Positions 1-64,000 of a DNA stretch of 64,000 nt are shown here, piece after piece. Source of the stretch: Neisseriales bacterium (lineage in GTDB: Bacteria; Pseudomonadota; Gammaproteobacteria; Burkholderiales; Q3-R57-64); NCBI GenBank assembly GCA_016699915.1, contig CP064990.1:256671-320670 (forward strand), given 5' to 3'. The position numbers were made by a program, and so were the translations under genes. Each line of letters begins with the position of its first letter. Position 1 is the stretch's first letter. The notes under the pieces are model-generated. The model searched no databases, was not told the origin of the DNA, and saw only the letters and a program-made list of their open reading frames with translations.

Positions 1-1
1 T

Positions 2-760
2 GATGCTATTATTAAAAGGATGATGCATCGTTTAGCCTATGTGCGCTTGCAACCTGATAGGGTGCTTGATGTGGGTAGCGGCACAGGCAACGGCGCTTTC
101 CATTTGCGCCAGCATTATCCGGTTGCTGATGTCATTGAGCTGGATATAGCTTGGTCTATGCTAACTTGTTCTTATTGTAAAACAGTAAACACCTCTTCGC
201 GACGTAGCCAATGGCTACTGAATGCGAACATGGATTACTTGCCTATTGCCAATGAAGCGGTTGATATGCTGTGGTCCAATTTGGTTTTGCATTATACGAA
301 TCACCCCGAAAGAATCTTACAAGAATGGCACCGTGTTTTAAAACCTAACGGACTTTTAATGTTCAGTTTATTAGGCCCTAAGACGCTGCAAGAATTTCAA
401 AGTGTTTTTTTGCAATCAGGCTGTCTTGGTTCACCCCATCATTTTGCTAGCATGCAGGCAATCGGTGACCAACTGCTGGAAGTAGGTTTTTCTGACCCGG
501 TTGTTGACCATGAAATGGTTGTGTTAACCTACCCAAATTGGCGAATGATGATACAGGCTTTGCGTGGTAGCGGTATGTATGCTTTACTTATTAATCAGTT
601 ACCAGCAAGGCTATCTCAGCAGCAATGGCGAAGGATTCAACAGCAATATGACATGCTGAGGTATGGGGGGGCTGATTGGCCAGTTACTTGTGAAGTGATT
701 TACGGGCATGCTTGGCGCGCTATAGCCGATGATGCGTTATATTCGATCCGGTCGGTATGA
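2..760 (+). CDS. bioC: BioC-like class I SAM-dependent methyltransferase (malonyl-ACP O-methyltransferase family); 5' end lies outside the window
   Basis: The frame is open to nt 2. It has SAM motif I 'VLDVGSGTG', then 'LWSNLVLHY', 'VLKPNGLLMFSLLGPKTLQEF' and a C-terminal 'VIYGHAW', collinear with E. coli BioC as I remember it. Confidence 0.6.
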   Translation, partial: DAIIKRMMHRLAYVRLQPDRVLDVGSGTGNGAFHLRQHYPVADVIELDIAWSMLTCSYCKTVNTSSRRSQWLLNANMDYLPIANEAVDMLWSNLVLHYTNHPERILQEWHRVLKPNGLLMFSLLGPKTLQEFQSVFLQSGCLGSPHHFASMQAIGDQLLEVGFSDPVVDHEMVVLTYPNWRMMIQALRGSGMYALLINQLPARLSQQQWRRIQQQYDMLRYGGADWPVTCEVIYGHAWRAIADDALYSIRSV

Positions 761-787
761 TCGGTATGTTGAGGATAGGCATAATTA

Positions 788-1432
788 ATGCAAAGGTCTG
801 GGATTGGTTTATTTGGCGGCACTTTTGACCCGATTCATCTTGGCCATCTTCGCTTGGCTTGTGCATTAAGAGATGAATTGCGATTATCCAAAGTTTACCT
901 TATACCTGCCGGACAGCCTTACCATAAAACAGCGTTGCCTGTTGCTAGCGCAGCCCAGCGCTTGGCCATGGTCAAGCTCGCTATTCAAGGCGAACCGTTG
1001 CTATTTACTGATGATCGTGATGCGGTTAAGCAAACACCAACCTATACAGTAGAAACACTCAGTACCATCCGCCAAGAGGTTGGCAGTAAAGAAGTGTTAT
1101 GGTATCTGATGGGTATGGATGCTTTTAGGCAATTGACCTTATGGAAAGACTGGAAAATTTTACTGACACTCACTAATATTGCCGTTGCTTTGCGAGATAA
1201 GCATCATGCTAAGCTACCGACACAACTGGATCTTCTATGGCAAGCACGGCAATCCGATGTATTTTCCCATCAAGTAGCAGGTAGGTTGTATTGCCTGCAT
1301 TTGCCTCCCAAAGCTATTGCTTCAAGGGATTTAAGGGAGCAGTTAATGTGCGGTAAACACGATCAAACTTTAGTACCCCAAGCTGTTTTAGACTATATGA
1401 CACGAGAAGCCATTTATTATCAGCCTGCTTGA
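788..1432 (+). CDS. nadD: nicotinate-nucleotide adenylyltransferase
   Basis: 214 aa. Nucleotidyltransferase motif 'GLFGGTFDPIHLGHL' and a C-terminal 'IASRDLRE' (ISSTxIR-like). Confidence 0.9.
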   Translation: MQRSGIGLFGGTFDPIHLGHLRLACALRDELRLSKVYLIPAGQPYHKTALPVASAAQRLAMVKLAIQGEPLLFTDDRDAVKQTPTYTVETLSTIRQEVGSKEVLWYLMGMDAFRQLTLWKDWKILLTLTNIAVALRDKHHAKLPTQLDLLWQARQSDVFSHQVAGRLYCLHLPPKAIASRDLREQLMCGKHDQTLVPQAVLDYMTREAIYYQPA

Positions 1433-1536
1433 TGAGGCATCTCTATCCAATCCATAGTTGTTAAAAAATAAGAGCACATTATACTCAACGTGATATTGAT
1501 CAGGTGCTATTGACTGTGTGATGGGATGCTTCAAAT

Positions 1537-2516: not shown

Positions 2517-2669
<153 letters not shown>

Positions 2670-2711
2670 TGTGGCATTTACAGCGATGCAAAAATAAAGA
2701 AGAATTGGTCG

Positions 2712-3329
2712 ATGAGTAGATTAATCTTGTCTTATATATTTACCTCCTCTTCACTTTGGATCTTCTCCTTCCTCATGCCGTTGTTGTTTTTATCGGCTAA
2801 AGCACCCCCATTACTTATTACGACCGCTTATGCTGTTGCTTTTTCGTCTTATTTGATTGTGACTCCTTTTGCTGGCGGGCTTTGTGATCGATTTAACAAA
2901 AAAATGATGCTGTTGCTCGGAGAATTATTAGCGTCTCTGTCCATAGCCATTATCGCCATCATGCCAATAAATAGTACGACCACTCCCTTGATTTTGCTAC
3001 TCACGTTTATTGCTGCTTCAGCAGGCGTGATGCATCATCCAACCTTTCAAAGTATTATTCCTTCTGTCGTACATCCTGATTTTCGCGAAAAGTTTAATGC
3101 CAAAATTAATGGGATTGATAATGTGGTTAATATTTTGGCGCCATTAGGCGCTGGTTCACTGTTAATATTGATGAATCATCAACAGGTTTTATTATCATGT
3201 ATAGCACTTAATTGTATTTCTTATTTAATTATTACTTATTTAAATTATCAACACTTCTCTGATAAGTGGCACCCTGATTTTCCTGGGGGTGCTCTATGGG
3301 AAAAAGACACCTTTGTTTGGAGCGGGTGA
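2712..3329 (+). pseudogene. MFS transporter, N-terminal half only (about 6 TM); truncated
   Basis: ATG 2712 lies within track ORF 2490..3329. The 205 aa contain about 6 hydrophobic helices and an MFS loop motif, 'PFAGGLCDRFNKKMMLL'. The ORF ends in non-MFS sequence ('SDKWHPDFPGGALWEKDTFVWSG'). Only ~250 bp of non-coding DNA follow, whereas full-length relatives are ~400 aa. Confidence 0.6.
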
Positions 3330-3447
3330 TAATGTCAAGCCCTCCTAAGCTATTCATTAGCTTTTTATATGCATCAAGTGTTTGCGTAATCTATACGCTA
3401 TGACATCCATTATTCGAACAGATGCTTTCTCATTGAGAAAATAGAAC

Positions 3448-14231: not shown

Positions 14232-14390
14232 TTATTCAGCAGCAGAGGCTTCGGAGGCTTCTTCAATGCTAGAAGCTTCTTGATTAAGAGGATCTGAAGC
14301 AACTTCCGATGAGGCAGTATCACTTTGTTTACCAGCACAACCAGTCAAAGCGATAGCCAACAAAGCAGCAACAAGTAGTGATTGTTTCAT
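14232..14390 (-). CDS. small acidic lipoprotein (hypothetical)
   Basis: 'MKQSLLVAALLAIALTGC' is a signal peptide plus lipobox. The mature part is Ser/Glu/Ala-rich. I chose the internal ATG at 14390. Confidence 0.55.
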   Translation of the reverse strand: MKQSLLVAALLAIALTGCAGKQSDTASSEVASDPLNQEASSIEEASEASAAE

Positions 14391-35669: not shown

Positions 35670-36243
35670 GATACTTTCTTTAACACTGTTTAATGGATTT
35701 TGAATATTACGATGATGACCATGGCTGACTTTTGAAATGACCAGTAAAGAAAAAACACCCACCAAATCAGCGTGCGGTTATTTTTTACATTTTTCTAACC
35801 TTTTTCAAAAATACTCAAAATCACATGAGTGAAAAATAAATATAAAACAGAAAAAATAAAAAATCCCCCATCTTGTTTTTATCGTCTATTGCATTATGTA
35901 TGTGAACCAGTAAAGTAATAGCATAAGTGTAGAAAGTTGCAAATAAAATACAGATCTTTTAAAAGTCTATTTCACTGTTCCTTTTTTTTAATAATCTATT
36001 TTGCTACTAATCCAATCCGATCCTGCTTTTCGCTGACAAAGCCGAAAAAACTTTCATGACAACTGAAAATTTGACCAGCAATTTTAAATGTGTCAAGGTG
36101 ATACAGGGAAACTGCAAAAAATATTTCAAGCTATACAACACTTCAATCAACATATTCCATTACTTGAAATAATTAGGGTACAGTAGTGGTATGATTGTAT
36201 ACCTACTTTGGTTTATATTTTTTTAGTGAAAGGTTATATGATT

Positions 36244-39728: not shown

Positions 39729-39806
39729 AACTTTGTAATTAACTAAAGCGCTCTGTCATCTTTATCTGATTTTGCAATATCAACCAAGCATCGCTTAGCC
39801 TTTTTT

Positions 39807-40880
39807 CTAAGGCGGTAATAAGGATTCACAAATATCGGCGATGCGCTCGCACGCATTGATTGAGGCAATGCTACGTGCCGCATTGGCCATTTTTAGGCAT
39901 TGTGCTCGGGTTAGTTTGTTGAGCCATTGCGCCACATTGTGTGGTGAAAATTCTCTCTGCGGTACAATATGCGCCGCACCTGCAAGAGACAGTAATTGGG
40001 CGTTACGTGTTTGGTGATCATCTGCTGCAAAAGGATAGGGCACCAATAAACTCCCTACCCCTGCTGCCGCTAATTCTGCAACAGTTAATGCACCTGCTCG
40101 ACATAACACAATATCAGCTTTGGCGTACTCATCTGCAATATGATCAATAAAAGCACGGCAGTCTGCCTCAATGTTCAATTGTGCATAGCGATTATTGAGC
40201 GCATCAATTTGTTGAACACCTGCCTGATGTACAACATGTAAACGTTGCGCGTCAGGCAATAATAAGGCAAGCGCTTGCGGCAAAACGTCATTGAATATTT
40301 GAGCTCCTAAACTACCGCCGATCACCAGTAGGCGCAAAGCGCCTTCCCTAGCCTGAAAACGCTTGTCTGGATTGGGCAGTCTTGCAATAGCTGATCTAAC
40401 CGGATTACCCACGCAACCTTCAGGGTCAGAAAATACGCCTGGGAAAGCATATAACGTGCGATGGGCAAAATAAGATAATACTTTGTTAGTCAAGCCAGCA
40501 ACGGCATTTTGTTCGTGAATCACGAGGGGCTTACCCATTAAACGTACTGCAACAGCACCTGGAAATGCCGCATACCCGCCAAAACCAATGGCTACATCAA
40601 ATGGGCGTTTGATAAAAAGCTTTTGTGCATCGTAAATTGCTCGCGCAACAGTAAATGGTGCGAGACATTGTCGCATCAAACCATTGCCTCGTAAGCCGTG
40701 AATTGTGATGGTTTCTAGTTCAATACCATGCTGAGGGATCAGATGATTTTCCATTCCCATTTTGCTACCCAGCCATACCGTTTTCCAGCCACGATTACGT
40801 AATGTTTCGGCAACCGCTAAACCAGGAAAAATATGTCCACCAGTGCCACCCGCCATAATCATCGCCGTGTAGGTTTTCAT
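39807..40880 (-). CDS. murG: undecaprenyldiphospho-muramoylpentapeptide beta-N-acetylglucosaminyltransferase
   Basis: 'MAGGTGGHIFPGLAVA'. 357 aa, in dcw cluster context. Confidence 0.96.
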   Translation of the reverse strand: MKTYTAMIMAGGTGGHIFPGLAVAETLRNRGWKTVWLGSKMGMENHLIPQHGIELETITIHGLRGNGLMRQCLAPFTVARAIYDAQKLFIKRPFDVAIGFGGYAAFPGAVAVRLMGKPLVIHEQNAVAGLTNKVLSYFAHRTLYAFPGVFSDPEGCVGNPVRSAIARLPNPDKRFQAREGALRLLVIGGSLGAQIFNDVLPQALALLLPDAQRLHVVHQAGVQQIDALNNRYAQLNIEADCRAFIDHIADEYAKADIVLCRAGALTVAELAAAGVGSLLVPYPFAADDHQTRNAQLLSLAGAAHIVPQREFSPHNVAQWLNKLTRAQCLKMANAARSIASINACERIADICESLLPP

Positions 40881-42058
40881 GATGAAACCTTGTAGTATCC
40901 ATGCATAATGCGTTTATTTTCCCAATCCACCCTCAATACTATACAAAGCGCCACTAAATTAGCAACGAGAGCTGATCCACCAAATGACATCAATGGCATC
41001 GTCATACCTTTTGTTGGCAAAATTCCCATGCTAACGCCCATATTAAGAAACGCTTGTAACCCAATCCAAATACCAATGCCCTTAGCAACCAAAGCACCAT
41101 AATAACGCTCTAGCTTTCTGGCTTGTTCTCCAATACGAAAAGTGCGCCATACAATCCATGCATAAGTTGTAATCAGCAAGCAAACCCCAATCACACCAAA
41201 TTCTTCAGCAATGACAGCCATAATAAAATCCGTATGTGGTTCAGGTAAATACGCTAATTTTTGTATCCCACCACCTAATCCCATGCCAGACCACTTGCCT
41301 AATCCAAAGGCAATAAGCGAGTTGGTTAACTGATAACCCTTATCATAAGGGTCATCAAAAGGCGCAATAAATCCTAATACCCGACGCATCCGATAAGGTT
41401 CAATCAGGATAAGCAAAATTAATGTCACGAGTGCCAACAGTATTGAACCACTAAATACCCAACCATTTACACCGCCTAAAAATAGTAAACAAAAGATGAT
41501 GACTATAATAACAACCAATGCACCAAAATCAGGTTCGAGTAAGAGTAATACCCCAATAAGCAACATCGGCGCAATGGCTGGCAAAAACCCTCTTTGGATA
41601 TTATCCAATACCGTTTGTTTTCGTATCAAATAACTTGCTGTATAAAGAACACAAGCAAATTTCATCAATTCAGAAGGCTGAATGTGAAACCACAATAATG
41701 TTATCCAACGACGTGAACCATTGACTGTGTGCCCGATACCTGGCACCAAAACCAATACAAGCAATAACAACGCAACGCCAAAAATAGGCGTTGCGTATTG
41801 TTCCCAAATCCGTAATGGTACGCAAAACGCAATCCAACCGATGGTCATTGCTATGACAATGGACACGGCATGGTAATATAGGTAGTAGTAAGGATTACCA
41901 GTATGAGAAAAATGTTCAGCAACAGCAATTGAGGCAGAATACACCATCGTTAGGCTAAATAACAAAAGACCAAGCACAACAAAAGTCAGGGCTTCATCAT
42001 ATTTTTTAGTGTGGACAAGTGGTGGTTTTGTCCATATTTTTTTTAGCAGGTTGTACAT
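40877..42058 (-). CDS. ftsW: peptidoglycan glycosyltransferase / lipid II flippase FtsW (SEDS family)
   Basis: A ~10-TM protein. 'LPEPHTDFIMAVIAEEFG'. It lies between murD and murG. Confidence 0.93.
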   Translation of the reverse strand: MYNLLKKIWTKPPLVHTKKYDEALTFVVLGLLLFSLTMVYSASIAVAEHFSHTGNPYYYLYYHAVSIVIAMTIGWIAFCVPLRIWEQYATPIFGVALLLLVLVLVPGIGHTVNGSRRWITLLWFHIQPSELMKFACVLYTASYLIRKQTVLDNIQRGFLPAIAPMLLIGVLLLLEPDFGALVVIIVIIFCLLFLGGVNGWVFSGSILLALVTLILLILIEPYRMRRVLGFIAPFDDPYDKGYQLTNSLIAFGLGKWSGMGLGGGIQKLAYLPEPHTDFIMAVIAEEFGVIGVCLLITTYAWIVWRTFRIGEQARKLERYYGALVAKGIGIWIGLQAFLNMGVSMGILPTKGMTMPLMSFGGSALVANLVALCIVLRVDWENKRIMHGYYKVSS

Positions 42059-43404
42059 ATCGGTTTCAGGGATGACACCGCATCACGGAAGACTTGTGCA
42101 CGATGGGCATAGTTATTAAACATATCAAAACTAGCACAAGCAGGAGAAAGAAGAACCGTATCACCCGCTTTGGCTAAGTTGGTAGCTACCCATGTTGCTT
42201 CTTCCAATGTTTGGCAATGTTGAATAGGTAAGCGAAGCCCTGCAATGGCTTCATGAATCTTCTGCGCATCTTCTCCAATTAATACAACCGCTCTGCCGAC
42301 CTTTTGCAATGCGTTGTTGAGTAGGGAAAAGTCCTGCATTTTGCCTGCTCCTCCTGCGATCAGCACCACCTTTTTTGGCATACTCAATAGTGCCGCTTCG
42401 GTAGCAGCAACGTTGGTACCTTTTGAGTCATCAATGTAAGTTATCCCATTGATTTGATCAACCCGTTCAATGCGATGTGGCAAACCGCGAAAAGTTTTGA
42501 GACCAGTAAGTAATGGCGCACGAGGCAAGCGTAGTGCCTCACACAACGCTAAAGCAGCCAAAGCATTAGCCGCGTTATGTTTACCCAGCATTAGCAGTGC
42601 TTGCGTTGATAATAGAGATATGCCATCTGCTATGAGCACATCCCCTGCTGATACATGATAGTCCGCGTTTTGCCGCAGAGAAAATTGACGGATAACCCGC
42701 CCTTTTCTTTGCATCGCAAGACATAATGGGTCATCGGCATTAATTACCTGTACGCCTTGTCCATTAAAGATATGTGCTTTACTTGCCGCATAATGTAATA
42801 AGTCAGGATATCGATCAAGGTGATCTTCAGCAATATTCAACACAACTGCTGCATCAGCGTTTAAGGACTGTGTGACATCCAACTGAAAACTTGATAGTTC
42901 CAATACCCAATATGCTGGCATTCTGCCTTGCAGTTCTTTATCCCACAATGCCTTCAATATCGGCAACCCAATATTGCCTGCAACGACTGTATCACACTGG
43001 CAAATCCGACAGAGATGACCCACCCATTCTGTAACCGTACTTTTACCGTTTGAACCTGTAATTGCAATTACTTTTCCCGAAACATGATGCGAAAAAAGCC
43101 GTGCAAATAATTCAATATCGCCAAGAATGCTACCACCTTTTTGGCGAAAAGCCATGATATCTGGGTTAGCAAGCGGCACCCCTGGACTAACAAGCACATA
43201 ATCGGCTTGTTGCCAGTAACGATCTGCTAAGCGTTCTGTGTAAAGTGGTACGTTGGGTAATAACTGGGCAAATAACTCGCCTTTTGCTGGTATTTTTTGG
43301 TGATCAAACGCTACGACCTCTGCACCATGTTGTACGAGGTAAAAAGCACTTGCTAAGCCTGTATCTCCTAAACCCAGTACAATAAATTTTTTTCCAGCAA
43401 GCAT
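42043..43404 (-). CDS. murD: UDP-N-acetylmuramoylalanine--D-glutamate ligase
   Basis: 'VLGLGDTGLA' and 'ITGSNGKSTV'. 453 aa. Confidence 0.95.
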   Translation of the reverse strand: MLAGKKFIVLGLGDTGLASAFYLVQHGAEVVAFDHQKIPAKGELFAQLLPNVPLYTERLADRYWQQADYVLVSPGVPLANPDIMAFRQKGGSILGDIELFARLFSHHVSGKVIAITGSNGKSTVTEWVGHLCRICQCDTVVAGNIGLPILKALWDKELQGRMPAYWVLELSSFQLDVTQSLNADAAVVLNIAEDHLDRYPDLLHYAASKAHIFNGQGVQVINADDPLCLAMQRKGRVIRQFSLRQNADYHVSAGDVLIADGISLLSTQALLMLGKHNAANALAALALCEALRLPRAPLLTGLKTFRGLPHRIERVDQINGITYIDDSKGTNVAATEAALLSMPKKVVLIAGGAGKMQDFSLLNNALQKVGRAVVLIGEDAQKIHEAIAGLRLPIQHCQTLEEATWVATNLAKAGDTVLLSPACASFDMFNNYAHRAQVFRDAVSSLKPICTTC

Positions 43405-43407
43405 GAT

Positions 43408-44493
43408 TTATCGCAGTTTTAATGTTGTTAAACCGATTAGCACCAAAATCATGGTGATAATCCAAAAACGGACTACAATTTGTGTTTCTGTCCATCCCTT
43501 TAACTCATAGTGATGGTGTAAGGGTGCCATTTTAAAGATACGGCGACCCGTCAATTTAAAAGCGGTTACTTGTAAAACAACAGAAACCGCTTCTATTACA
43601 AATAATCCACCCATAATCAATAGCACAATTTCCTGACGCACGATCACAGCTACTACGCCTAGTGCAGCACCAAGTGGCAATGCGCCAGTATCGCCCATAA
43701 AAACTTGAGCCGGATAAGCGTTAAACCATAAAAATCCCAAACAAGCACCACAGATCGCTGCACAAAAAATTACCACTTCATGTGCGCCGGGCACGAAGGG
43801 CAATTGTAGATACTGAGCAAAAACAGTATGCCCTGCAACATAAGCAAATATTGCAAAACCAGCCGAAACTAAGACGACAGGTAGTGTTGCTAATCCGTCT
43901 AATCCATCGGTCAGATTAACAGCATTTGATGTACCAACAATCACTAAATAGGTTAATAAAAAAAAACCACAGGCACCCAAAGGATAGTTAATATGCTTGA
44001 AAAAAGGCACAATAAATTCGTAGGAGGCAGGTAATTTTGCGGTATAAAAAAGAAATATAGCAGCGACAATAGCCAAAACAGATTGCCAAAACATTTTGGC
44101 ATAAAATGATAGTCCACTGGTATGGTTATGCTTAATTTTGTGCCAATCATCGTAAAAACCTAATGTACCCATACCAAAGAGTATAGCAAGCAATAAAGCA
44201 ATATAATGATTCCCTAAGTCAGCCCATAGCAAAGTGCTTACCACAATGCATAACAAAATCAAAGCACCGCCCATGGTTGGTGTGCCCGTCTTGACAAGAT
44301 GCGATTGTGGGCCATCTGTACGAACAACTTGACCGACCTTAAATAGGGTCAGCTTACCAATGACATGCGTTCCCAATAATAGCGAGATAAAAAGAGCCGT
44401 TAAGCAAGCCATAACTGCCCGCAATGTCGTATAGTTTAGTACACCAAGACCGCGTATTTGCCCACCCCATAAATTCGCTAACCATAAAAACAT
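43408..44493 (-). CDS. mraY: phospho-N-acetylmuramoyl-pentapeptide transferase
   Basis: '[13 protein letters not shown]' and '[12 protein letters not shown]'. 361 aa. Confidence 0.97.
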
Positions 44494-44503
44494 CGCCGTT
44501 CAC

Positions 44504-45874
44504 CTAGTGTATCGTTCGTTGGGAAAAATATTGCACGACACGTTCCATTTTCATGGCACGCGAACCCTTGACTAAAACCGTACTTTGTTGATTAATCAAT
44601 ACTTCTAAACCCTGACATAAGGCTTTAATTGTCTCAAAGCAAAGCGCATTTTTGCCAAATGCTTTGGCAGCGCTTTGTGATAAAGTACCCAGTGTCAGTA
44701 GGTAATCGATCCCTTTTGCTTTGGCATAATATCCAATATCTTCGTGTTGTTGTTCAGCTTTTTCGCCTAATTCAGCCATATCACCCATGACCAAAATACG
44801 CGGTGTGCATCCGTTTGATGCTAATACATCAATTGCTGCTTTCATCGAATCCGGGTTAGCATTATAGGTGTCATCAATCCACAATCCACTGGCCATCTGC
44901 ATACTATTCAAGCGTCCTGGCGTACCTAAAAATAATGATAATCCTTGTGTAATGGTCAACAAAGGAACCTGCATTACGAACGCTGCAGTTGCCGCAGCTA
45001 ATGCATTATAAATATTATGTGCGCCTGGCATACGAAGCGTTACTGATGATATGCCTTGTGGCGTAACTAGGCTAAAGGTGCTGCTTAGCCCATTTAATTT
45101 GATATGGTCAGCATATACATCACCCTGATGTAACCCAAAATGGTAGCAAGTGTGCCCTTGTGCTTTGTGATCAAACAAAGTGGTATAGGGGTCGTCAGCA
45201 GGCATAATCGCAATACCAGAGCTATCTAGGTTTTCAAATATTTCAGCTTTTGCTGTTGCAATATCTCGTAGACTTGAAAAACCACCGCTCATGTGCGCAT
45301 GTCGGGCATTTAAAACCATGGCAATTGTAGGATGAGTCAATTGTGCTAAATAAGCAATTTCCCCCGCATGACTCATGCCCATTTCAATCACCGCATATTG
45401 ATGAAATGACGTCAAACCCAACAAGGTAAGTGGCAACCCAACATGGTTGTTAAAATTGCCTGGCGTTGCCCATACTGCATCGGCGCTACTTTGCACACTT
45501 AAAATTGACGCTAACATATTTTTAACTGTAGTTTTCCCGTTAGACCCGGTAATACCTACAACAGGTATTGCATGTAATTTTCGCCATTGTTGAGCCATAC
45601 GACCCAATTCATGGTAAGTGTCAGCCACTGGTAATACAAACTTATCAAAGCAAGAGTAGCCTTGATTAACCATCGCACCGATTGCACCTTGTTTGAAGGC
45701 TTGTCGAACAAAATCATGGCCATCAACATGCTGTCCTTTTAGCGCGACGAAAAAATCCCCTGTTTGCAATATACGTGTATCCGTAACAATTTTTCTGACA
45801 GGCTGATCCCAAGCAATGTGACTACTGACTTGATCATGTGCAATCAAACGCGCAATCCATCCCATCGTCATCAT
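44504..45874 (-). CDS. murF: UDP-N-acetylmuramoyl-tripeptide--D-alanyl-D-alanine ligase
   Basis: 'GITGSNGKTTVK'. 456 aa, between murE and mraY. Confidence 0.95.
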   Translation of the reverse strand: MMTMGWIARLIAHDQVSSHIAWDQPVRKIVTDTRILQTGDFFVALKGQHVDGHDFVRQAFKQGAIGAMVNQGYSCFDKFVLPVADTYHELGRMAQQWRKLHAIPVVGITGSNGKTTVKNMLASILSVQSSADAVWATPGNFNNHVGLPLTLLGLTSFHQYAVIEMGMSHAGEIAYLAQLTHPTIAMVLNARHAHMSGGFSSLRDIATAKAEIFENLDSSGIAIMPADDPYTTLFDHKAQGHTCYHFGLHQGDVYADHIKLNGLSSTFSLVTPQGISSVTLRMPGAHNIYNALAAATAAFVMQVPLLTITQGLSLFLGTPGRLNSMQMASGLWIDDTYNANPDSMKAAIDVLASNGCTPRILVMGDMAELGEKAEQQHEDIGYYAKAKGIDYLLTLGTLSQSAAKAFGKNALCFETIKALCQGLEVLINQQSTVLVKGSRAMKMERVVQYFSQRTIH

Positions 45875-47346
45875 GACTGCGTTCCCTGATACAATAATTG
45901 TTCAGCAATGTTAAAATCGGAAAAAGGCAGTTTATGGCCACCGATATCTTGGTGCTGTTCATGACCTTTTCCGGCAATCAGCACAATATCCTTTGCTGTT
46001 GCATGACGAATCGCCCACTCAATTGCCAAGGCACGGTCAACTTCAATATGCGACACATGATGCATACCCGATACAATATCTTGCACAATATGTTCTGATA
46101 CTTCAGTGCGTGGGTTATCACTTGTTACAACAGAAACATCAGCATTTTTTTCAACAACGTGACCCATCATGGGTCGTTTGCCATGGTCTCGATCCCCACC
46201 ACAGCCAAAGACACAGTACAGCTTGCCCTGTTCTGTCCGTAATTCAGATAATGATTTGAGGGCTGCTTGTAATGCATCGGGTGTGTGTGCGTAATCAATC
46301 ACCACGAGTGGTTTATTTCCTCCACCCAATCGCTGCATACGACCACAGACTGGCTCCATAAGGCTGAGCACATCACGCGCTTGAGATAATGGCACATCAT
46401 CCACACACAATGCAGCAAGACAAGCGAGTATATTGGAAATGTTAAAGCGCCCAATCAAGGAATTAGCAAGTTGAATATCACCCCATGGTGTATGAATATC
46501 AAGTACCATTCCCCCTTTAGAGACGTGGCAAGCAGTCAGATGAATATCACCTTGTTCCAGACCATATGTTAATAATTGCACAGCTTGTTGCTTAAGTTGT
46601 GCAGCTAATTGATAACCAAACTGGTCTGCTACATTAATAATGGCATAACGCAAGCTTTCCCAATAAAATAGCAGGCTTTTTGTGTAACCATAAGCTTGCA
46701 TAGTTTGATGGTAATCAAGATGATCCCTTGTCAAATTTGTAAAAATCGCTGTTTCAAATGGCACACCATTCACGCGCCCTTGATCTAGAGCATGAGAAGA
46801 AACTTCTATTGCTACAACTTTTGCTGATTGATGTGCAAAATGTGCTAATAATTGCTGCATGGTAATTGCGTCCGGCGTCGTATACGTGGTGTTGGACAAT
46901 TGGCTTAAAAAACCATTACCTACTGTACCGATAAGCGCTGCTTTCTTTTCCAAGATACCATAGGCTTGTGCTAACCAATGTGTAATGGAAGTTTTGCCAT
47001 TTGTGCCTGTTACGCCGATGATCCGCATGGCTTGGCTAGGATAATGCAATATATCTGCAACAATCATGCCAGCTTGTTGAGCAAGCTGCTTAACAGGCAA
47101 GTGATCAACTAACCAATTGGAGTTCCAACAAAAACCAGCATCATCTTCCCAAAAGACAACCGATGCACCTTGTCGAACCGCTTCGGCAATGTAATGTCTA
47201 CCGTCAGTATGATGACCTTGATAGGCCAAAAAAAGATCACCCTGCTTGACCAATCGGCTATCTGCCGTTACATGATTAACTTTATGGTAAAAAGGTCGGT
47301 AACGGGTCAAGTCGCATATCGGTAGCGGTTGTAAGCGACTTTTCAC
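45871..47346 (-). CDS. murE: UDP-N-acetylmuramoyl-L-alanyl-D-glutamate--2,6-diaminopimelate ligase
   Basis: 'GVTGTNGKTS' and 'TSDNPRTE' (DNPR motif). 491 aa. Confidence 0.95.
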   Translation of the reverse strand: MKSRLQPLPICDLTRYRPFYHKVNHVTADSRLVKQGDLFLAYQGHHTDGRHYIAEAVRQGASVVFWEDDAGFCWNSNWLVDHLPVKQLAQQAGMIVADILHYPSQAMRIIGVTGTNGKTSITHWLAQAYGILEKKAALIGTVGNGFLSQLSNTTYTTPDAITMQQLLAHFAHQSAKVVAIEVSSHALDQGRVNGVPFETAIFTNLTRDHLDYHQTMQAYGYTKSLLFYWESLRYAIINVADQFGYQLAAQLKQQAVQLLTYGLEQGDIHLTACHVSKGGMVLDIHTPWGDIQLANSLIGRFNISNILACLAALCVDDVPLSQARDVLSLMEPVCGRMQRLGGGNKPLVVIDYAHTPDALQAALKSLSELRTEQGKLYCVFGCGGDRDHGKRPMMGHVVEKNADVSVVTSDNPRTEVSEHIVQDIVSGMHHVSHIEVDRALAIEWAIRHATAKDIVLIAGKGHEQHQDIGGHKLPFSDFNIAEQLLYQGTQS

Positions 47347-47370
47347 ATGCTTCCTTTCTTTGTCAACAAG

Positions 47371-49086
47371 CTAGTCAGCAACAGTCAGTAGATTATTTAT
47401 AGACATATCAGGCGCTACGTCAAAACTACGCAAACAGCCATTCATAATGCGCGAAAAAATAGGACCTGCCACTGTTGTGCCGTAATAAAATCCAGCATGT
47501 GGCTCATCAATCATGACCGCGACAATAAAACGCGGTTTTGATAAAGCGGGCGCAAAACCGATAAATAAACTAGCATGTTTGTTGGGTTGATAGACACCGT
47601 TTTCAAGCTTACGTACCGTACCCGATTTTCCGGCTACGTGGTAACCCGATATTTGTATACTAGGCTGCCCAACAATGGTCAGCATTTGTCGCATTTGTCT
47701 GGCTGTACTATTAGCAATGACTTGCTCTCCCTCAGCTGGCATCGATACCTTAGCAAAAGAAACGGGCATTAACTTACCGCTAGTTGTAAAAATGGTATAG
47801 GCTCTGGCCATTTGTAATAAACTGGCCGCGACACCATACCCAAAAGACATCGTTGCTTGTTCTATAGGTCGCCAATTAACTGGGTTGCGTAGCCTGCCTG
47901 CGCTTTCCCCTGGAAAACCTGAATCCAATGAACGACCAAAACCGACGGTATGATAAAAATGCCACATCTCACGTGAACTAAACATGAGTGCAAGTTTGGA
48001 AACACCAACATTAGAGGATTTTTGTACAATGTTAGCCACATCCAAGCTGCGATGGGTTTTAACATCCCGCACCACAGCGCCATTAATAGTGTAGCTATTG
48101 GTATTCAGTACAGTATGTGGCGTTACTTTTCCGCTATCAATAGCCTTTGAAACCAAGATTGGCTTAATGGTTGAGCCTGGTTCTGTAAGATCAGTAATTG
48201 CACTATTGCGCCATTGTAGTGAACGCGTAGTTTGGCGATTATTAGGGTTATAAGAGGGATAATTTGCCATGGCTAAAATTTCGCCTGTTTGAGCATCCAG
48301 CACAACGACACTACCAGATTTGGCCTTGTTTTCTACTACGCCACGCCTAAGCTCACGATAAGCTAAATACTGGAGTTTCTGATCCATGGACAAGATAAGT
48401 TTTTGCCCATTTTTTGGTAATGTCACATCGGTCAAATCATCAACAATATGACCTAGTCGATCTTTAAGCACAACCCTTTTACCATTTTGCCCGGCTAGCT
48501 TATCGTTGTATGCCAACTCTAGACCTTCTTGACCTATTTTATCCACTCCTGTAAAACCGACTGCATGTGCGAATAATTCGCCGGTTGGGTAAAAACGCCG
48601 ATACTCAACTTGACTGGCAATACCTGGAATACCCAATTGCATCACTCGGTTAGCAAGTTCTGGTGCAATGTGACGTTTGATGTAAACAAATTCTCGCTTT
48701 TTATCAGCCAATTTTGCCTGAATAGTGCTCGGCAAGATGTTAAGTAAATGCGCTAATCGCTTTAATTGTTGATGTGACACTTTTTCCATGCTTGACGGGC
48801 TAGCCCAAATTGATTCCACACGTGCACTCACTGCTAACAAGGCACCATTTCGGTCTGTAATAACACCACGCGTTGCATGTAAAGTCAGCTCACGACAAAA
48901 ACGTGCCTCCCCCTGATTTTGTAAGAAATGCCCATTGCACAACAAAATGTAAAAAGCGCGAACCAATAACACTAAAAACAATGCGATAAAGATAAAGAGA
49001 ACAATACGAGACCGTTTAGACTGTTTATCTAATGGTGCAGGCTGTTTGCCGCTATAGCGAAAGTTTGTGTAAGTATAGCTACTCAT
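47371..49086 (-). CDS. ftsI: peptidoglycan D,D-transpeptidase FtsI (PBP3)
   Basis: SxxK 'GSTIKP', SxN 'SSNVG' and KSG 'AGKSGTV'. An N-terminal TM anchor. Confidence 0.95.
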   Translation of the reverse strand: MSSYTYTNFRYSGKQPAPLDKQSKRSRIVLFIFIALFLVLLVRAFYILLCNGHFLQNQGEARFCRELTLHATRGVITDRNGALLAVSARVESIWASPSSMEKVSHQQLKRLAHLLNILPSTIQAKLADKKREFVYIKRHIAPELANRVMQLGIPGIASQVEYRRFYPTGELFAHAVGFTGVDKIGQEGLELAYNDKLAGQNGKRVVLKDRLGHIVDDLTDVTLPKNGQKLILSMDQKLQYLAYRELRRGVVENKAKSGSVVVLDAQTGEILAMANYPSYNPNNRQTTRSLQWRNSAITDLTEPGSTIKPILVSKAIDSGKVTPHTVLNTNSYTINGAVVRDVKTHRSLDVANIVQKSSNVGVSKLALMFSSREMWHFYHTVGFGRSLDSGFPGESAGRLRNPVNWRPIEQATMSFGYGVAASLLQMARAYTIFTTSGKLMPVSFAKVSMPAEGEQVIANSTARQMRQMLTIVGQPSIQISGYHVAGKSGTVRKLENGVYQPNKHASLFIGFAPALSKPRFIVAVMIDEPHAGFYYGTTVAGPIFSRIMNGCLRSFDVAPDMSINNLLTVAD

Positions 49087-49360
49087 TGATCAAGCTTTTA
49101 TTAGCATTAATAACAACCGTTTCTTCTTTGCTTGGTATGTGCATACCTAAACGTGTGGTTGCTGCTTTATCCACTAAGTTATGTGCTCCCCAAGTACTTT
49201 GTTCCAGCTGCAGTTGTTCATACTCTGCATTGAGTTGTTCTATTTGGTTTTGTATCCTATCTAATTGGCTATAAATGGAACGCGCTTTATGCTGTGTAGT
49301 CACTACCCAAAGTGCAAAACCAACGATAGCAATTAATAAAACACCATTCAATTTCTTCAA
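49079..49360 (-). CDS. ftsL: cell division protein FtsL
   Basis: 93 aa with one TM followed by a coiled coil ('QIEQLNAEYEQLQLEQS'). It lies between rsmH and ftsI. Confidence 0.88.
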   Translation of the reverse strand: MKKLNGVLLIAIVGFALWVVTTQHKARSIYSQLDRIQNQIEQLNAEYEQLQLEQSTWGAHNLVDKAATTRLGMHIPSKEETVVINANKSLINE

Positions 49361-49365
49361 GCCAT

Positions 49366-50319
49366 CTACTCTCTTAACAAAGCGTGGCTACGCCTTGCAA
49401 CACGAAGTACAGCAGAACGCGCCCGCGGGTTCTGCTGTACTTCTTCTTTGCTTGCATGCTTGACACGATCAACGCAGTCCAATAATGGTTGGGCTAATTC
49501 ATGACTCCTTACTTTGACCCAACGGGGTAAATGATCAGCCCGGCTATAACAACGCATGAATCGCTTAACGATGCGATCTTCGAGCGAATGAAAGCTAATC
49601 ACTACGAGTTTTCCACCACACTTTAATCGCCGCACTATTTTCGGCAATACGGTCGCTAGAGAATTTAGCTCATCATTGATGTAAATTCTTAATGCTTGAA
49701 ATGTCCTTGTTGCAGGATGCTGTCCTGCTTCATAATGTTTAATTTGCTTCGCAACCAATGTTGCTAACTGACCCGTTGTAGCGATAGGGGACACAGCACG
49801 CTGTTTGACAATCGCACCAGCAATAGATTTTGCAAATCGCTCTTCTCCATAAGTACGAATCACCTGCTCAATATCTGATTGCGTGGCGTTTGATAACCAT
49901 TCGGCTGCCGTCATGCCACTACTCGTATCCATACGCATATCAAGCGGTGCATCAAAACGAAAACTAAATCCACGCTTTGCATCATCTAATTGCATTGAAG
50001 ACATTCCTAAGTCATAAAGCGCACCATCAATTTGGTCTATACCCATACGATCTAATACCAACTCAACATGCACAAAATCACTATGTACCATATCAAATCG
50101 TCCATCTTCCTTAGACAGTGCAGATCCAATAGCAACCGCATACGGATCTTTATCTAACGCAATAAGACGTCCCGATGCACTCAATCTGTCTAATATGGAT
50201 TGACTATGCCCACCATATCCAAAAGTGTTATCTAAATACACACCTGCTTTTTTGGTAATCAATGCGTTAGCCGATTCGCTACACAACACACTTTGATGGT
50301 GTAATGCCTGATCATTCAT
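49366..50319 (-). CDS. rsmH: 16S rRNA (cytosine1402-N4)-methyltransferase
   Basis: 'DNTFGYGGHS' and 'ISFHSLEDRIVK'. Confidence 0.96.
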   Translation of the reverse strand: MNDQALHHQSVLCSESANALITKKAGVYLDNTFGYGGHSQSILDRLSASGRLIALDKDPYAVAIGSALSKEDGRFDMVHSDFVHVELVLDRMGIDQIDGALYDLGMSSMQLDDAKRGFSFRFDAPLDMRMDTSSGMTAAEWLSNATQSDIEQVIRTYGEERFAKSIAGAIVKQRAVSPIATTGQLATLVAKQIKHYEAGQHPATRTFQALRIYINDELNSLATVLPKIVRRLKCGGKLVVISFHSLEDRIVKRFMRCYSRADHLPRWVKVRSHELAQPLLDCVDRVKHASKEEVQQNPRARSAVLRVARRSHALLRE

Positions 50320-50762
50320 AATGAAAACTCATCCAGTGCCATGTTTAAAACTTTTCTGTCTAGAATCAAAGCCGCTTCCGTCTCCGCTTTCCAGTCTTGT
50401 GCGTTCCATAACTCAAAACGGTTACCCATTCCAACAAGTCCCACTTCTTTGTTTAAAAAAACCAATTCCCGTAAACAAGTAGGAATCAAAATACGTCCAA
50501 AACCATCCATTTCCAAGGTTTCAGCATGCCCAAGCATTAAACGCTGATAAGCTTTAAGCATAGGGTTGCCGACGGGTAACGCAATGAGTTTTTGCTCAAC
50601 AAGTCGCCATTGTGATTCTGGGTAAATCAAAAGATGGTTTTTTGCTTCTAGGGTAACCACTAACGTTGGGCTAAAATTTGTCAATAACACTTCTCGATGT
50701 TTAGCGGGGATCGCTAAGCGCCCTTTATTATCCAAATTGAGAATATTTACACCGCCAAACAT
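50316..50762 (-). CDS. mraZ: transcriptional regulator MraZ
   Basis: Duplicated DxxxR motifs, 'DNKGRLAIP' and 'DGFGRILIP'. 148 aa. Confidence 0.96.
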   Translation of the reverse strand: MFGGVNILNLDNKGRLAIPAKHREVLLTNFSPTLVVTLEAKNHLLIYPESQWRLVEQKLIALPVGNPMLKAYQRLMLGHAETLEMDGFGRILIPTCLRELVFLNKEVGLVGMGNRFELWNAQDWKAETEAALILDRKVLNMALDEFSL

Positions 50763-50832
50763 GTCATGAACCTCATTGACTGAAGTTGGTCAATACATGC
50801 CCCACCCTAAAAAAAGTAGTACGTGCATATTT

Positions 50833-50872
50833 TACCCACTTTAATCCATTTTTATCCACTTTATGCCACTTT
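50833..50872 (-). promoter_or_regulatory. MraZ-type operator: four tandem 10-bp direct repeats
   Basis: The minus strand reads AAAGTGGCAT AAAGTGGATA AAAATGGATT AAAGTGGGTA (plus strand tacccacttt aatccatttt tatccacttt atgccacttt). It lies 71-110 nt upstream of the mraZ ATG. The GTGG core with 10-bp periodicity matches described MraZ boxes. Confidence 0.7.
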
Positions 50873-50897
50873 TAGAGAATTAGGCAATATTTGTCAA
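50869..50897 (-). promoter_or_regulatory. candidate sigma70 promoter of the dcw operon (Pmra)
   Basis: On the minus strand, TTGACA (50897-50892), a 17-nt spacer, then TAAAAG (50874-50869). The -10 element overlaps the first operator repeat. Confidence 0.45.
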
Positions 50898-51308
50898 GCA
50901 AAAAATAGCTCTTATGCTGAAAAAATAATGGGACGTGACATGCGAAACCATCTGTGTGCGCAAAAATAAGCATTGTCAGCAACAAGTTTTGTGCTAATTT
51001 CATCCAAATGGTATGTTGAACAACTTATGTTACAGTGTAGTCAAAATATACAAAGTAAGTAGCGCAGAAAGAAAAACTGATCAGCAATGATTGCAGTAGT
51101 TAAAAAGTACTGCATAGGAAAATCAACGTGCTGCTATTCTTGCATAACAAGCTTTTCCCAAATTATCATTTACAATGTGTCTCATCTGAATTGACTCTTA
51201 GGGTTTTTTGTTATAGTTAGCGGTTCGGGTGCATTCATTAAAACTTAAAAAAACTGAGGCTCGTTTTGGTTTATTATATTTTTACGATACGACCAATCCT
51301 CTATTACT

Positions 51309-52094
51309 ATGTCTATTAATCTAGCAAGACGTTTTGGTGGTATTGCCAAACTATATGGCGAAGAGTGTTTGGCACAATTTGCTCAGTCCCATGTATGCGT
51401 CGTTGGTGTAGGAGGTGTTGGCTCTTGGACAGTTGAAGCGCTTGTCCGTAGTGGAATTGGCGCGATTACCATCATTGATTTGGATAATGTCAGTTAGTCG
51501 AACTGTAATCGACAGCTTTCTGCATTAGACCCGCATTTTGGCAGGGCTAAAGTAGCGGTCATCACAGAACGTATGCACGCTATTAATCCACACTGTCGTA
51601 TCAATGCTATTGAAGAATTTATTAATGCGGATAACTTATCTGAATTGCTCAATGAGCGCTTTGATTACCTCATGGATGCGATAGATCACACTGCTACTAA
51701 GGCCGTTTTAGCTACTTGGTGTATTCAACAAAAACTCCCTTTCATTGTATGTGGCGGAGCGGGCGGAAAAATTCAGCCACAGTGTGTTAAAGTCAGTGAT
51801 TTAAGTGCTGTGCAGGGCGATCGTCTATTGGCAAACTTGCGCTATACCCTCAGGAAATATTATGGATTCAGTCAACCGATCAAGCAACCATTCAATGTAC
51901 TTTGCGTTTACTCAGATGAACCTGAGCGCCATCCATTACAACGTACATCCAATAAGGCTTTAAGTGGTTTATCTTGCTCAGGATATGGTTCCAGCATGGC
52001 TGTTACAGCTACTTTTGGTTTAATTGCTGCGGCGACTGTGATTAATACTTTAGCTGGCTATACATCGCACATAATAGCTCGGCAACACGCATGA
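51309..52094 (+). pseudogene. tcdA: tRNA threonylcarbamoyladenosine dehydratase (TcdA/CsdL, ThiF/E1-like) interrupted by one in-frame TAG at 51495-51497
   Basis: Track ORFs 51309..51497 and 51573..52094 are in the same frame. The joined translation 'VGVGGVGSW...GIGAITIIDLDNVS*SNCNRQ...INP' is collinear with E. coli TcdA 'VGIGGVGSW...GIGAITLIDMDDVCVTNTNRQ'. The stop falls on a sense position inside the conserved D-x-V-x-x-(S/T)-N-x-N-R-Q block. Confidence 0.75.
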
Positions 52095-61262: not shown

Positions 61263-62174
61263 TTACAAATCATGCAATATTTCGCGCATCCATTGTGGCA
61301 CGACTGCAAGGAGGCGACCCATCCAATCTGGCAGCTTGATGCCAAAAGTAGAGTTGAATAAGGTTGTTGCCAATTCAACTGTATGGGGACGCTTTGCACG
61401 CTGCGGTTGTATTGAGGTTGATAGCGGATAAAGATGACCTAACACATAGCCTTGCGTATCATGATGTTTGGCAATATTCAGTACCTTTTGTGCATAATCA
61501 AACCGGCTCGTTTTGCCTTGTGACGATAAGTGGTAAAGACCATAAGGAAATAAAGATGGCTCTTGCGTTTGAATATACTGTTTGAGTACCTGGCAGGTTG
61601 CTATAGCCACATCAATCGTTGCAGTGGGTACCCCAAATTCATCGTCAACAGCATATATCGCTTGATTAAGATACGCAGATTGTAAAATTATCTTAGGAAA
61701 ACTCCTGCCTTGAGAATCAAATAACCAACTGGTGCGAAAAATAAGATAGCGATCGGTGTAAATGGATACTAGTTTTTCACCCGCAAGCTTACTTTTTCCG
61801 TAGACAGATAATGGATGCGTCCTATCTGTTTCAAGGTAAGGGGTGAGTTGCTGCCCATCAAACACATAGTCTGTCGAATAATGTACAAAAAGAGCACCAT
61901 AATGCGTAGCCAACTGAGCCAGCACGCCAACGGCCTCTGCATTAGTCCAATGCGCCAAAGCAGCATCCGATTCAGCTTGATCCACATTCGTATAGGCTGC
62001 TGCGTTGATGATAATATGAGGTTGTATGCGACGCATGAGACAGCGCAATGCATGGCTATCCGTAATATCACATGTGATGCGATCTATTGCTGTAACTTGA
62101 CCTAATAAATCCAAGTAACAACAGAGCCTCTGACCGAGCCTACCATTTTTACCGAATAAGATAATACGCGTCAT
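61263..62174 (-). CDS. rfbD: dTDP-4-dehydrorhamnose reductase (RmlD-type SDR)
   Basis: 303 aa. N-terminal Rossmann 'ILFGKNGRLG', 'IINAAAYTNVDQAE', 'HYSTDYVFDG' and 'YGKSKLAGE' (YxxxK). Confidence 0.75.
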   Translation of the reverse strand: MTRIILFGKNGRLGQRLCCYLDLLGQVTAIDRITCDITDSHALRCLMRRIQPHIIINAAAYTNVDQAESDAALAHWTNAEAVGVLAQLATHYGALFVHYSTDYVFDGQQLTPYLETDRTHPLSVYGKSKLAGEKLVSIYTDRYLIFRTSWLFDSQGRSFPKIILQSAYLNQAIYAVDDEFGVPTATIDVAIATCQVLKQYIQTQEPSLFPYGLYHLSSQGKTSRFDYAQKVLNIAKHHDTQGYVLGHLYPLSTSIQPQRAKRPHTVELATTLFNSTFGIKLPDWMGRLLAVVPQWMREILHDL

Positions 62175-62197
62175 ACCAATTGGTTGCTTTCCTTATC

Positions 62198-62962
62198 CTA
62201 TTGCGCAGGATAACGAGTGACTGTTTCACTTTTCAATCCGGTAATACAATAATCTCCCCATAGTGCCTGTAAAGCCGACACGGCAGATAATGCTGCAGTT
62301 TCAGTGCGTAGTACGCGAGGACCCAAGCGAACGGCTAACCAGCCATTTTGAATAGCCAATTGTTGCTCTTGCGGATCTAAGCCTCCTTCCGGGCCTACCA
62401 TCATCCAAATTTTACTAGGACGCTCATCAGATGGCATAGTGGTTGCATCTGGCGATAGGAGCCATTTAGTGGATACATCACTTCTTAACCTGTTTACCCA
62501 TGATGAAAAGGACTGCACAGGATAGATTGTTGGAATAATATTTCGGCCACATTGCTCACAGGCGGCAATGATAATCGCTTGCCATCTTGCTAATTTTGCC
62601 ACCAAATCTTGTTGTGACTGTTTACCTATAGAGCGCTTCATGAGGAGTGGCTGAAATGCACATACACCCATTTCTACCCCTTTTTGCAGTGTAAAAACCA
62701 TACTCTCTGAGCAAGAAATCCCTTGCGCCAAACCAATCCACAAGGGACATTCACGATCAATATGCTGTGGCGCACCAACCTGTGCCCAGGCTGTTTGGCG
62801 TGTTATATTTTCAAGCGTAGCGGGGTATTCGTAGCCATCTCCGCAAAATAGCGCTAATGTTTGACCAGCTTTTAAGCGTAACACATGGATATGGCGAACA
62901 ACCGATTCAGGCAGTTGCCACTTTCCAATGCGAGGCGAGGTTGCAACATAGAACCTAGGCAT
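62198..62962 (-). CDS. rsmE: 16S rRNA (uracil1498-N3)-methyltransferase
   Basis: 'RHIHVLRLKAG' (PUA-like N-terminus) and 'MMVGPEGGLDPQE'. 254 aa. Confidence 0.88.
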   Translation of the reverse strand: MPRFYVATSPRIGKWQLPESVVRHIHVLRLKAGQTLALFCGDGYEYPATLENITRQTAWAQVGAPQHIDRECPLWIGLAQGISCSESMVFTLQKGVEMGVCAFQPLLMKRSIGKQSQQDLVAKLARWQAIIIAACEQCGRNIIPTIYPVQSFSSWVNRLRSDVSTKWLLSPDATTMPSDERPSKIWMMVGPEGGLDPQEQQLAIQNGWLAVRLGPRVLRTETAALSAVSALQALWGDYCITGLKSETVTRYPAQ

Positions 62963-63004
62963 GATAGGTTAAGTTAAAAGCTAAGCAGATTTAACAGTCT
63001 TTAT

Positions 63005-64000
63005 TCACAGGCTGTAGTACATTTCAAACTCAATAGGATGTGTAATGGTACGCAGCAAGTTTACTTCATCAGTTTTAACTTTGATATAAGCATCAATAAA
63101 GTCTTGACTAAATACGCCACCTTGTAATAAGAAAGCGTGATCCTCAGCCAGTGCACCCAGTGCTTCTTCCAACGAGGCGCATACTGTTGGGATCTGTTTA
63201 TTTTCCTCAGCGGTAAGCGTATAAAGATTCTTGCTTGTTGCTGCACCGGGATGAATTTTTTGTTTAATGCCATCCAGCCCTGCCAATAGCAAAGCGGCAA
63301 AACACAAATAAGGATTTGATAACGCATCTGGAAAACGCACTTCTACACGACACGCGCTGGAATTTGTTGCATAGGGAATGCGAATAGCAGCTGAACGGTT
63401 AGAAGGTGCGTAAGCTAACTTAACAGGGGCTTCGTAATGTGGCACAAGACGCTTATAAGAATTGGTGCCCGGATTGGTGATAGCATTAAGTGCTCTAGCA
63501 TGCTTAATAATACCACCGATATAGTAAAGTGCAATATCTGACAAACCGCCCGGTTGATCGCTTGCAAACAAATTTTGCCCTTTTTTCCATAGCGATTGAT
63601 GAATATGCATCCCAGAGCCATTATCTCCTACAATTGGCTTGGGCATAAATGTAGCGGTTTTGCCGTAGTGATGCGCAACGTTACGCACGATATACTTGGA
63701 AATTTGCGTCCAATCGGCGCGCTCTGTCAGAGTCGAGAATCGGCTAGCGACCTCACTTTGCCCGGCAGTACCCACCTCGTGATGATGGACTTCAGCATGA
63801 ATGCCCATTTCCTCCATCGCTAACAAAATCGCAGAGCGAAGATCATGGCCACTATCCACAGGTGGCATTGCATAGTAGCCCCTTTAACATTGGGGCGATG
63901 CCCCGTATTGGCGCCTTCGTAAGATTTTCCAGAAGACCATGCAGCCTCTTCCGATTCGATTTTAACAAACGTACCCGACATATCGGTTTTCCAAGTCACG
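63005..64000 (-). pseudogene. glnA: glutamine synthetase type I with an apparent 1-nt frameshift in a C4 run (63879-63882); N-terminal part continues beyond the window edge
   Basis: The C-terminal 287 aa carry GS-I signatures: '[12 protein letters not shown]', '[16 protein letters not shown]', 'NSYKRLVP' and the adenylylation-site context 'KNLYTL'. Upstream (63883-64000, a different frame) reads '..[40 protein letters not shown]'. The two join as 'GHRPNVKG|GYYAMPPVD' only if the G4 run (minus strand) were G5. Confidence 0.8.

Follow-up and report, generated by a model that had tools for sequence, protein, structure and literature searches.

The 64,000-nucleotide stretch of contig CP064990.1 analyzed here (positions 256,671 to 320,670; referred to throughout as the window), which belongs to a Neisseriales bacterium, is probably, at a likelihood of roughly 70%, an ordinary stretch of a long-reduced and already published genome, whose five anomalies do not share one common cause. 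These anomalies are a truncated major facilitator superfamily (MFS) transporter gene, a stray fragment of 23S rRNA, a shortened division and cell wall (dcw) gene cluster, an in-frame amber codon in tcdA, and a frameshift in glnA. A previous interpretation, made from the letters alone (the sequence-only reading), had regarded them as independent gene-disabling lesions in a lineage undergoing ongoing reductive evolution or, alternatively, as the product of systematic assembly error. Each of the five is indeed present in the sequence, with the exception of an eroded ddl gene that had been placed at the end of the dcw cluster. They comprise two structural scars, one clade-wide gene-order change, and two single-base defects which an independent assembly lacks, a combination that does not demonstrate ongoing erosion. 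The features concerned are as follows.

2517..2669, plus strand: 153-nt fragment of 23S rRNA, corresponding roughly to helices 91 to 95 (Rfam LSU_rRNA_bacteria, 63 bits)
2712..3329, plus strand: MFS pseudogene, an open reading frame (ORF) of 205 codons (Pfam MFS_1 positions 1-167 of 347; alignment with sister-species contig L170)
37623..38309, no strand: gene-free 687-bp spacer from ubiG to murC, at the end of the dcw cluster (blastx, profile, and Rfam searches negative)
38310..50762, minus strand: intact cluster mraZ-rsmH-ftsL-ftsI-murE-murF-mraY-murD-ftsW-murG-murC (ORF list; collinear with contigs L082, L085, and L087)
51309..52094, plus strand: tcdA, intact except for a single in-frame TAG codon (51495-51497; translation and alignment)
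63005..64000, minus strand: glnA, running off the window edge, with one nucleotide missing at 63879-63882 (G4 for G5), the remainder being intact (frame analysis)

CP064990.1 (GCA_016699915) represents “Neisseriales bacterium Fred,” a circular metagenome-assembled genome (MAG) of 912,463 bp with a guanine-plus-cytosine (GC) content of 41.5%, which was recovered from the Fredericia activated-sludge plant (PMC11436785, PMC8012365). It is listed as circular under the name Fred_18-Q3-R57-64_MAXAC.425_cln in Supplementary Data 3 of the original study, with a CheckM completeness of 74% and a GTDB assignment to the order Burkholderiales and to no family (PMC8012365). The genome was assembled by CANU from Nanopore reads and subsequently processed by Racon, two rounds of medaka v0.6.5, and one round of Racon with Illumina reads, at a coverage of 22.7x (Nanopore) and 12.1x (Illumina) and with a polymorphic rate of 0.0002 (PMC8012365). 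The proteins of the window correspond exactly to accessions QQS16849 to QQS17029, and its gene content is a typical betaproteobacterial housekeeping set at a GC content of approximately 42%. The source bacterium is a deep-branching Neisseriales/Burkholderiales lineage, the closest cultured relatives of which (Aquitalea, Vogesella, and Aquaspirillum) display a MurC identity of only ~64%; a GrpE metagenome scan for close relatives returned none above 55% identity. Comparisons were made with contigs of a ~99.9%-identical strain (L001 and L089, from an independent short-read Logan assembly of DRR274965), of a sister species (L170, from ERR4010616), and of a relative in the Joint Genome Institute (JGI) data (L082, L085, and L086). 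The DRR274965 contigs differ from the window by approximately one substitution per kilobase, and they derive from a different sample.

The two point lesions are single-nucleotide changes, each of which is the sole defect of the gene in which it resides. At the position of the tcdA amber codon, the JGI relative (L082) carries GAG (Glu) in a gene which otherwise shares 68% identity over its full length and contains no further defects. The Logan protein P0137 (261 residues) matches the window TcdA at every residue save for a Glu at the TAG codon, and P0138, a relative with 87% identity, likewise possesses Glu at this position. TAG is an ordinary stop codon in this genome, where it terminates 14 of 54 genes. 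In the case of glnA, the frame shifts at AAAGGGGCTAC (63879-63882, minus strand), and the addition of one G restores it. An intact GlnA of 475 residues (P0377) is found on contig L089 of DRR274965 and is identical to the repaired window protein at all 331 of 331 positions. Across 1245 nt, the corresponding DNA sequences differ by one G (L089 having G5 where the window has G4) and by one synonymous ATT/ATC site, at which the outgroup carries the allele of the window. GlnA of a relative from ERR4010616 (P0257; 95% identical) is also intact.

Neither tcdA nor glnA is, on these grounds, an established pseudogene: the lesions do not occur in independent data from the same lineage, and secondary decay was not observed in either gene. 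Because they are absent from independent assemblies of the ~99.9%-identical strain, the lesions are private to the Fredericia assembly and represent either consensus errors or very recent mutations. It is considered most likely that they are errors left in the consensus of an assembly that was Nanopore-first and of low coverage, or at most would be very recent strain-level mutations. The former explanation is favored for glnA, where the defect is a homopolymer indel, the assembly is Nanopore-first with Illumina coverage of ~12x, and the short-read data lack the defect. It is held with less assurance for tcdA, where the change is G to T. The caveat of the sequence-only reading that the point lesions may reflect sequencing chemistry is thus the better of its two options, both genes being intact in the ~99.9%-identical strain. 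Its suggestion of a systematic error was not supported, as a single frameshift is found in 64 kb despite the presence of more than 130 homopolymers of at least 6 nt; across the 4.4 kb that could be cross-checked against the DRR274965 contigs, only one indel was encountered.

The window and the DRR274965 contigs differ by five substitutions, of which three lie at or beside homopolymer runs (e.g., GGAAAAAA versus GGGAAAAA), two of them at 38131-38260 (against L001) and the third in glnA near 63254. Such a pattern is also typical of Nanopore consensus errors. A methylation-motif miscall was considered for the tcdA substitution, the intact GAGTC being a match to GANTC, and was rejected because the motif is not depleted in the window (135 GANTC sites; 25 GAGTC versus 20 expected).

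The truncation of the MFS gene is of a different nature. At the same location, and likewise convergent with dnaK, the sister-species contig encodes an intact MFS orthologue of 390 residues, the two DNA sequences being 91% identical from ileS to dnaK, with homology at the MFS locus spanning 2638 to 3253. DNA and protein alignments indicate that the window gene retains ~181 N-terminal codons and that ~554 nt have been deleted internally, while the terminal ~13 codons, together with the stop, are found again in another frame at 3293-3330. An intact 12-helix domain would occupy ~347 profile positions or ~390 residues, whereas only the first 167 of the 347 MFS_1 positions are retained here. The sequence-only reading was, therefore, correct in describing a truncated MFS gene, and the defect is not a base-calling error. 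It is an ordinary deletional pseudogene, inactivated by an internal loss of ~0.55 kb after the separation of the two species. The possibility that this gene is an ancestral neighbor of an rRNA operon in Neisseria found no support among the best plasmid-collection matches listed, which include no Neisseria orthologue and consist of proteins of Salmonella plasmids and Burkholderia at ~34% identity.

Immediately upstream of the MFS gene lies the stranded 23S rRNA fragment, whose presence, as originally noted, is genuine and, like the MFS deletion, not attributable to base calling. It scores 63 bits against the large-subunit (LSU) rRNA model (gathering score, 50), covers approximately model positions 2543-2700, inclusive of the sarcin-ricin loop, and finds its best match in the 23S rRNA of Neisseria gonorrhoeae at 96.7% identity. 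Unique sequence flanks the fragment on both sides. The sister-species contig ends 31 nt inside the fragment (6839-6869), which adjoins the MFS upstream region at an identical junction, the termination of a contig at a repeat edge being the expected behavior of a de Bruijn assembler. Because this junction is shared, the fragment is real and older than the species split. The MAG table lists two full-length small-subunit (SSU) and three LSU rRNA genes (PMC8012365). As full-length 23S genes exist elsewhere in the genome, the 153-nt fragment is a surplus copy, and the same listing rules out the alternative of a split rRNA gene (PMC8012365). The additional LSU gene in that table might itself be the fragment, since it scores above the Rfam gathering threshold.

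The fragment has diverged far more slowly than neutral sequence would. Between the window and the sister species, divergence at four-fold sites is p = 0.28 (K = 0.35), from which neutral decay predicts ~27 changes in 153 nt on the window lineage, while at most ~6 separate the fragment from Neisseria 23S; the Poisson probability is about 4e-7 for five or fewer changes, the alignment showing about six. The 31 nt comparable between the two species contain one private substitution per lineage. The simplest cause of this slow divergence would be gene conversion from the full-length 23S genes, and it is proposed that the piece is an old stray copy, predating the species split, which may have been kept 23S-like in this manner. 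A very improbable alternative is that the fragment is a functional element under selection, such as a mimic of rRNA, a decoy, or a regulatory element associated with the neighboring MFS transporter. Its conservation well beyond neutral across the species split is in keeping with such a function, as are its location directly upstream of the MFS gene, in the same orientation, in both species and, by our reading of the alignment, the preservation of pairing in the helix-95 stem by the two private substitutions. However, the fragment shows no greater degradation in the window genome, although the adjoining MFS gene is dead there; the most promoter-like sequence for the MFS gene, at 2677-2705, lies downstream of the fragment; conversion would explain the conservation without any function; and the comparison between species extends over 31 nt only. 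The more specific proposal that selection has maintained it as a functional RNA ahead of the MFS gene, for example as a decoy or sensor for ribosome-targeting factors, is accorded a very slim chance.

Between nadD and the 23S fragment, two lineage-specific ORFs occupy 1537-2515. The first is without a family match, while the second specifies a membrane-anchored coiled-coil protein whose stop precedes the fragment start at 2517 by one base (A2516). The latter weakly resembles IcmG/DotF, a protein of type IVB secretion, at a level (E = 7.5e-6; 26 bits) below the cut-off of 200 bits.

In the canonical betaproteobacterial dcw cluster (mraZ ... murC-ddl-ftsQ-ftsA-ftsZ), murC is followed by ddl and the fts genes, and the order from mraZ to murC is retained intact in the window. 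The cluster then ends at murC, with ddl and ftsQAZ absent downstream, and is followed by the gene-free spacer of 687 bp, beyond which lies the convergent ubiG. The cluster is, accordingly, shortened as had been claimed, while the eroded ddl said to accompany it was not detected. A profile of the Ddl sequences of 76 betaproteobacterial loci, applied to all six frames of the spacer, gave a best E value of ~1 despite the tiny search space, and this profile also returned no match elsewhere in the window or in the contigs of the clade. A ddl tblastn search yielded nothing below E = 0.03, matches at that level being scattered. Profiles of FtsQ, FtsA, and FtsZ found no match in the spacer, blastx of the spacer against the ORFs of 87 related loci gave nothing relevant, and no noncoding RNA was detected in an Rfam search of 35.6-38.4 kb.

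Among the outgroup loci, ddl is situated directly 3′ of murC in 76 of 80. In the JGI relative (MurC 73% identical), murC is followed by ~217 bp (11405-11621 in L085 and 3330-3545 in L086) and then by ftsQ-ftsA-ftsZ-moaC-recC-recB, without ddl. From these two observations it follows that ddl left this position, and with it the dcw cluster, in an ancestor of the whole clade and that a relic is not to be expected in the window. The clade as a whole lacks ddl between murC and ftsQ and yet retains murC-F, mraY, murG, ftsW, and ftsI. Specific to the window species is the additional disappearance of ftsQAZ from the position after murC.

The point at which the cluster breaks coincides with a change in the sign of GC skew, which occurs at 37.5-38 kb, at the ubiG/murC spacer, irrespective of gene orientation. 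For genes on either strand, the third-codon-position skew is +0.22 and +0.06 to the left and −0.015 and −0.11 to the right, while in L085 the GC skew is positive throughout the equivalent point. The coincidence of skew switch and cluster break fits either a rearrangement breakpoint (e.g., of an inversion) or the replication terminus. It is, therefore, possible that a rearrangement subsequently severed the cluster of the window species after murC or that the cluster sits at the terminus. A search for dif, by which the terminus might have been placed, found no dif-like site, the best match containing 9-10 mismatches in 28 positions.

That all of these anomalies, inclusive of the 23S fragment, the MFS truncation, and the short dcw cluster, might be assembly artifacts arising from a chimeric join or collapsed repeat is scarcely credible. 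The genome is metagenome-assembled and Nanopore-first, and rRNA repeats are common sites of misassembly; however, the 23S/MFS junction recurs in the independent short-read assembly of a different species, and unique sequence borders the 153-nt fragment on both sides, an arrangement which a repeat misjoin would not yield. DRR274965 also carries the sequence just 3′ of murC (99.9% identity); in the independent contig L001, the 350 bp of the spacer closest to murC differ by two substitutions. The solitary indel of the cross-checked sequence likewise argues against a pervasive assembly fault.

The composition of the window and of the genome is that of a long-reduced genome, i.e., one that is compact as well as smaller and more AT-rich than those of its free-living relatives. 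The GC content is 42% in the window, whereas the dcw loci of free-living relatives have a median of 64%, consistent with the AT-rich composition that had been noted, and the shift is clade-wide, six clade contigs having a GC content of 39-44%. The hallmarks of active erosion, as seen in genomes of the Sodalis or Mycobacterium leprae type, namely low coding density, many pseudogenes, and insertion sequence (IS) expansion, were not found, and the coding density of the window is ~92%. The genome-wide pseudogene census, coding density, and mobile-element count that had been proposed as checks are already available: 902 genes, 853 proteins, 84 Pseudofinder pseudogenes, and a coding density of 90.4%, together with zero transposases, zero phage or mobile elements, and a BUSCO value of 53.4% (Table 1 of PMC11436785). 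The corresponding Pseudofinder figures for relatives are 258 of 1794 for Neisseria cinerea, 171 of 2296 for Snodgrassella alvi, and 108 of 2617 for Vitreoscilla (PMC11436785). The pseudogene share of 84/902 (9%) is thus not elevated, falling within the 4-14% obtained with the same tool for free-living relatives (PMC11436785). On these figures, an ongoing or recent erosion is not supported. The authors of the MAG had themselves already cited CP064990.1 as evidence for genome reduction in Proteobacteria (PMC8012365), and the reduced state of the lineage is, like the census, a published finding.

This evidence bears on the proposal that all of the lesions are real and mark reductive evolution still under way in a lineage that is host-restricted or bottlenecked, with tcdA and glnA as newborn pseudogenes in the Fredericia population, an explanation which we consider unlikely. 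The strong reduction and AT shift of the genome accord with it, and the MFS deletion indicates that genes were still being lost after the last species split. It is countered by the otherwise perfect conservation of tcdA and glnA and their intactness in the 99.9%-identical strain, by the classic Nanopore character of the homopolymer deletion in glnA in conjunction with Illumina polishing at 12x, by the undetectable ddl relic, and by the coding density, the absence of transposases, and the pseudogene share described above.

Several points nevertheless weigh against the interpretation of the window as an ordinary stretch with unconnected anomalies. DRR274965 is a distinct strain with real single-nucleotide polymorphisms (SNPs) at about 0.1%, so that the tcdA and glnA lesions could be true mutations of a single strain. 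Many symbionts and other reduced genomes can dispense with both genes, and random errors would not favor such genes; moreover, a G-to-T substitution is not a typical Nanopore error. From assemblies alone, error and mutation would not be separable. The MFS deletion is seen in one assembly, as is the ubiG side of the murC spacer, and the private substitutions of the 23S fragment would fit weak selection as well as they fit gene conversion.

Five gaps exceeding 400 bp are present in the window, one of which is the murC spacer. The remaining four are accounted for by the following features.

14232..14390, minus strand: candidate 52-residue lipoprotein ORF with an LTGC lipobox, in the spacer 14139-14649 (six-frame scan)
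30065..30331, minus strand: small tusA-like gene, in the spacer 30032-30436 (NCBIfam TusA, E = 2e-15; CPxP motif)
35670..36207, no strand: empty AT-rich spacer of 538 bp (30% GC) upstream of sodB (no ORF and no Rfam match)
50763..51308, no strand: divergent mraZ/tcdA regulatory region, not a lesion (equivalent gap of 430 bp in L082)

The ORF-free spacers counted among the anomalies by the sequence-only reading consequently hold in part. Those at 35670-36207 and 37623-38309 are truly empty; that at 30032-30436 contains the tusA-like gene, and that at 14139-14649 contains the 52-residue ORF, which has a weak match to an NCBIfam lipoprotein signal-peptide model. The gap at 50763-51308 is not an anomaly, being the intergenic region of the divergent mraZ and tcdA. 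The other window genes that were checked are of full length against NCBIfam or Pfam models. Upstream of tkt, a break in synteny is apparent, the window harboring mrcA (penicillin-binding protein 1A [PBP1A]) at 58540-58874 and L082 a MatE-like gene at 1625-2868. A PglL-type oligosaccharyltransferase is retained, as are two pgl-like genes; at 20100-21908 and 25277-27062, this 0.9-Mb genome has kept a Neisseria-style protein O-glycosylation set (PglL-type oligosaccharyltransferase, Bac_transf sugar transferase, and DegT aminotransferase).

Comparison with known systems places these observations in familiar categories. The glnA lesion, a one-base deletion from G5 in an otherwise perfect gene, resembles the residual errors of Nanopore-first assemblies (R9 era, medaka plus light Illumina polishing); unlike typical errors of this kind, the tcdA lesion is a G-to-T change, and the error load of the window is low, with its single frameshift. 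The small genome, AT shift, high coding density, lack of mobile elements, loss by deletion, and broken conserved clusters are shared with Candidatus Kinetoplastibacterium and with the Neisseriaceae-related louse symbionts. In contrast to such host-dependent Betaproteobacteria, the window genome originates from activated sludge, with no host known, its GC content is still 42%, and the genes for peptidoglycan and division that lie in the window are intact. The 23S fragment is reminiscent of pseudo-rRNA kept by gene conversion, being a short internal piece with unique flanks and slow divergence in a genome that also contains full-length 23S; it differs from the known examples in that conversion is here a proposed cause and in that, in both species, the fragment keeps its place ahead of a single transporter gene. 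While the order from mraZ to murC is that of the canonical dcw cluster, the clade departs from it in lacking ddl, and the window species in lacking ftsQAZ after murC, the break being located at the switch in GC-skew polarity.

Because both the reduction and the census have been published, the present finding adds little to the understanding of this lineage as a reduced one. It does illustrate that single-base “pseudogenes” in thinly polished Nanopore-first MAGs should not be taken as evidence of decay until they have been checked against reads or independent assemblies. For specialists of this clade, two by-products may be of use, namely, a dcw cluster which lacks ddl while other murein-synthesis genes are kept and a stray 23S rRNA fragment which is conserved across a species split, the latter being the only item that is mildly surprising.

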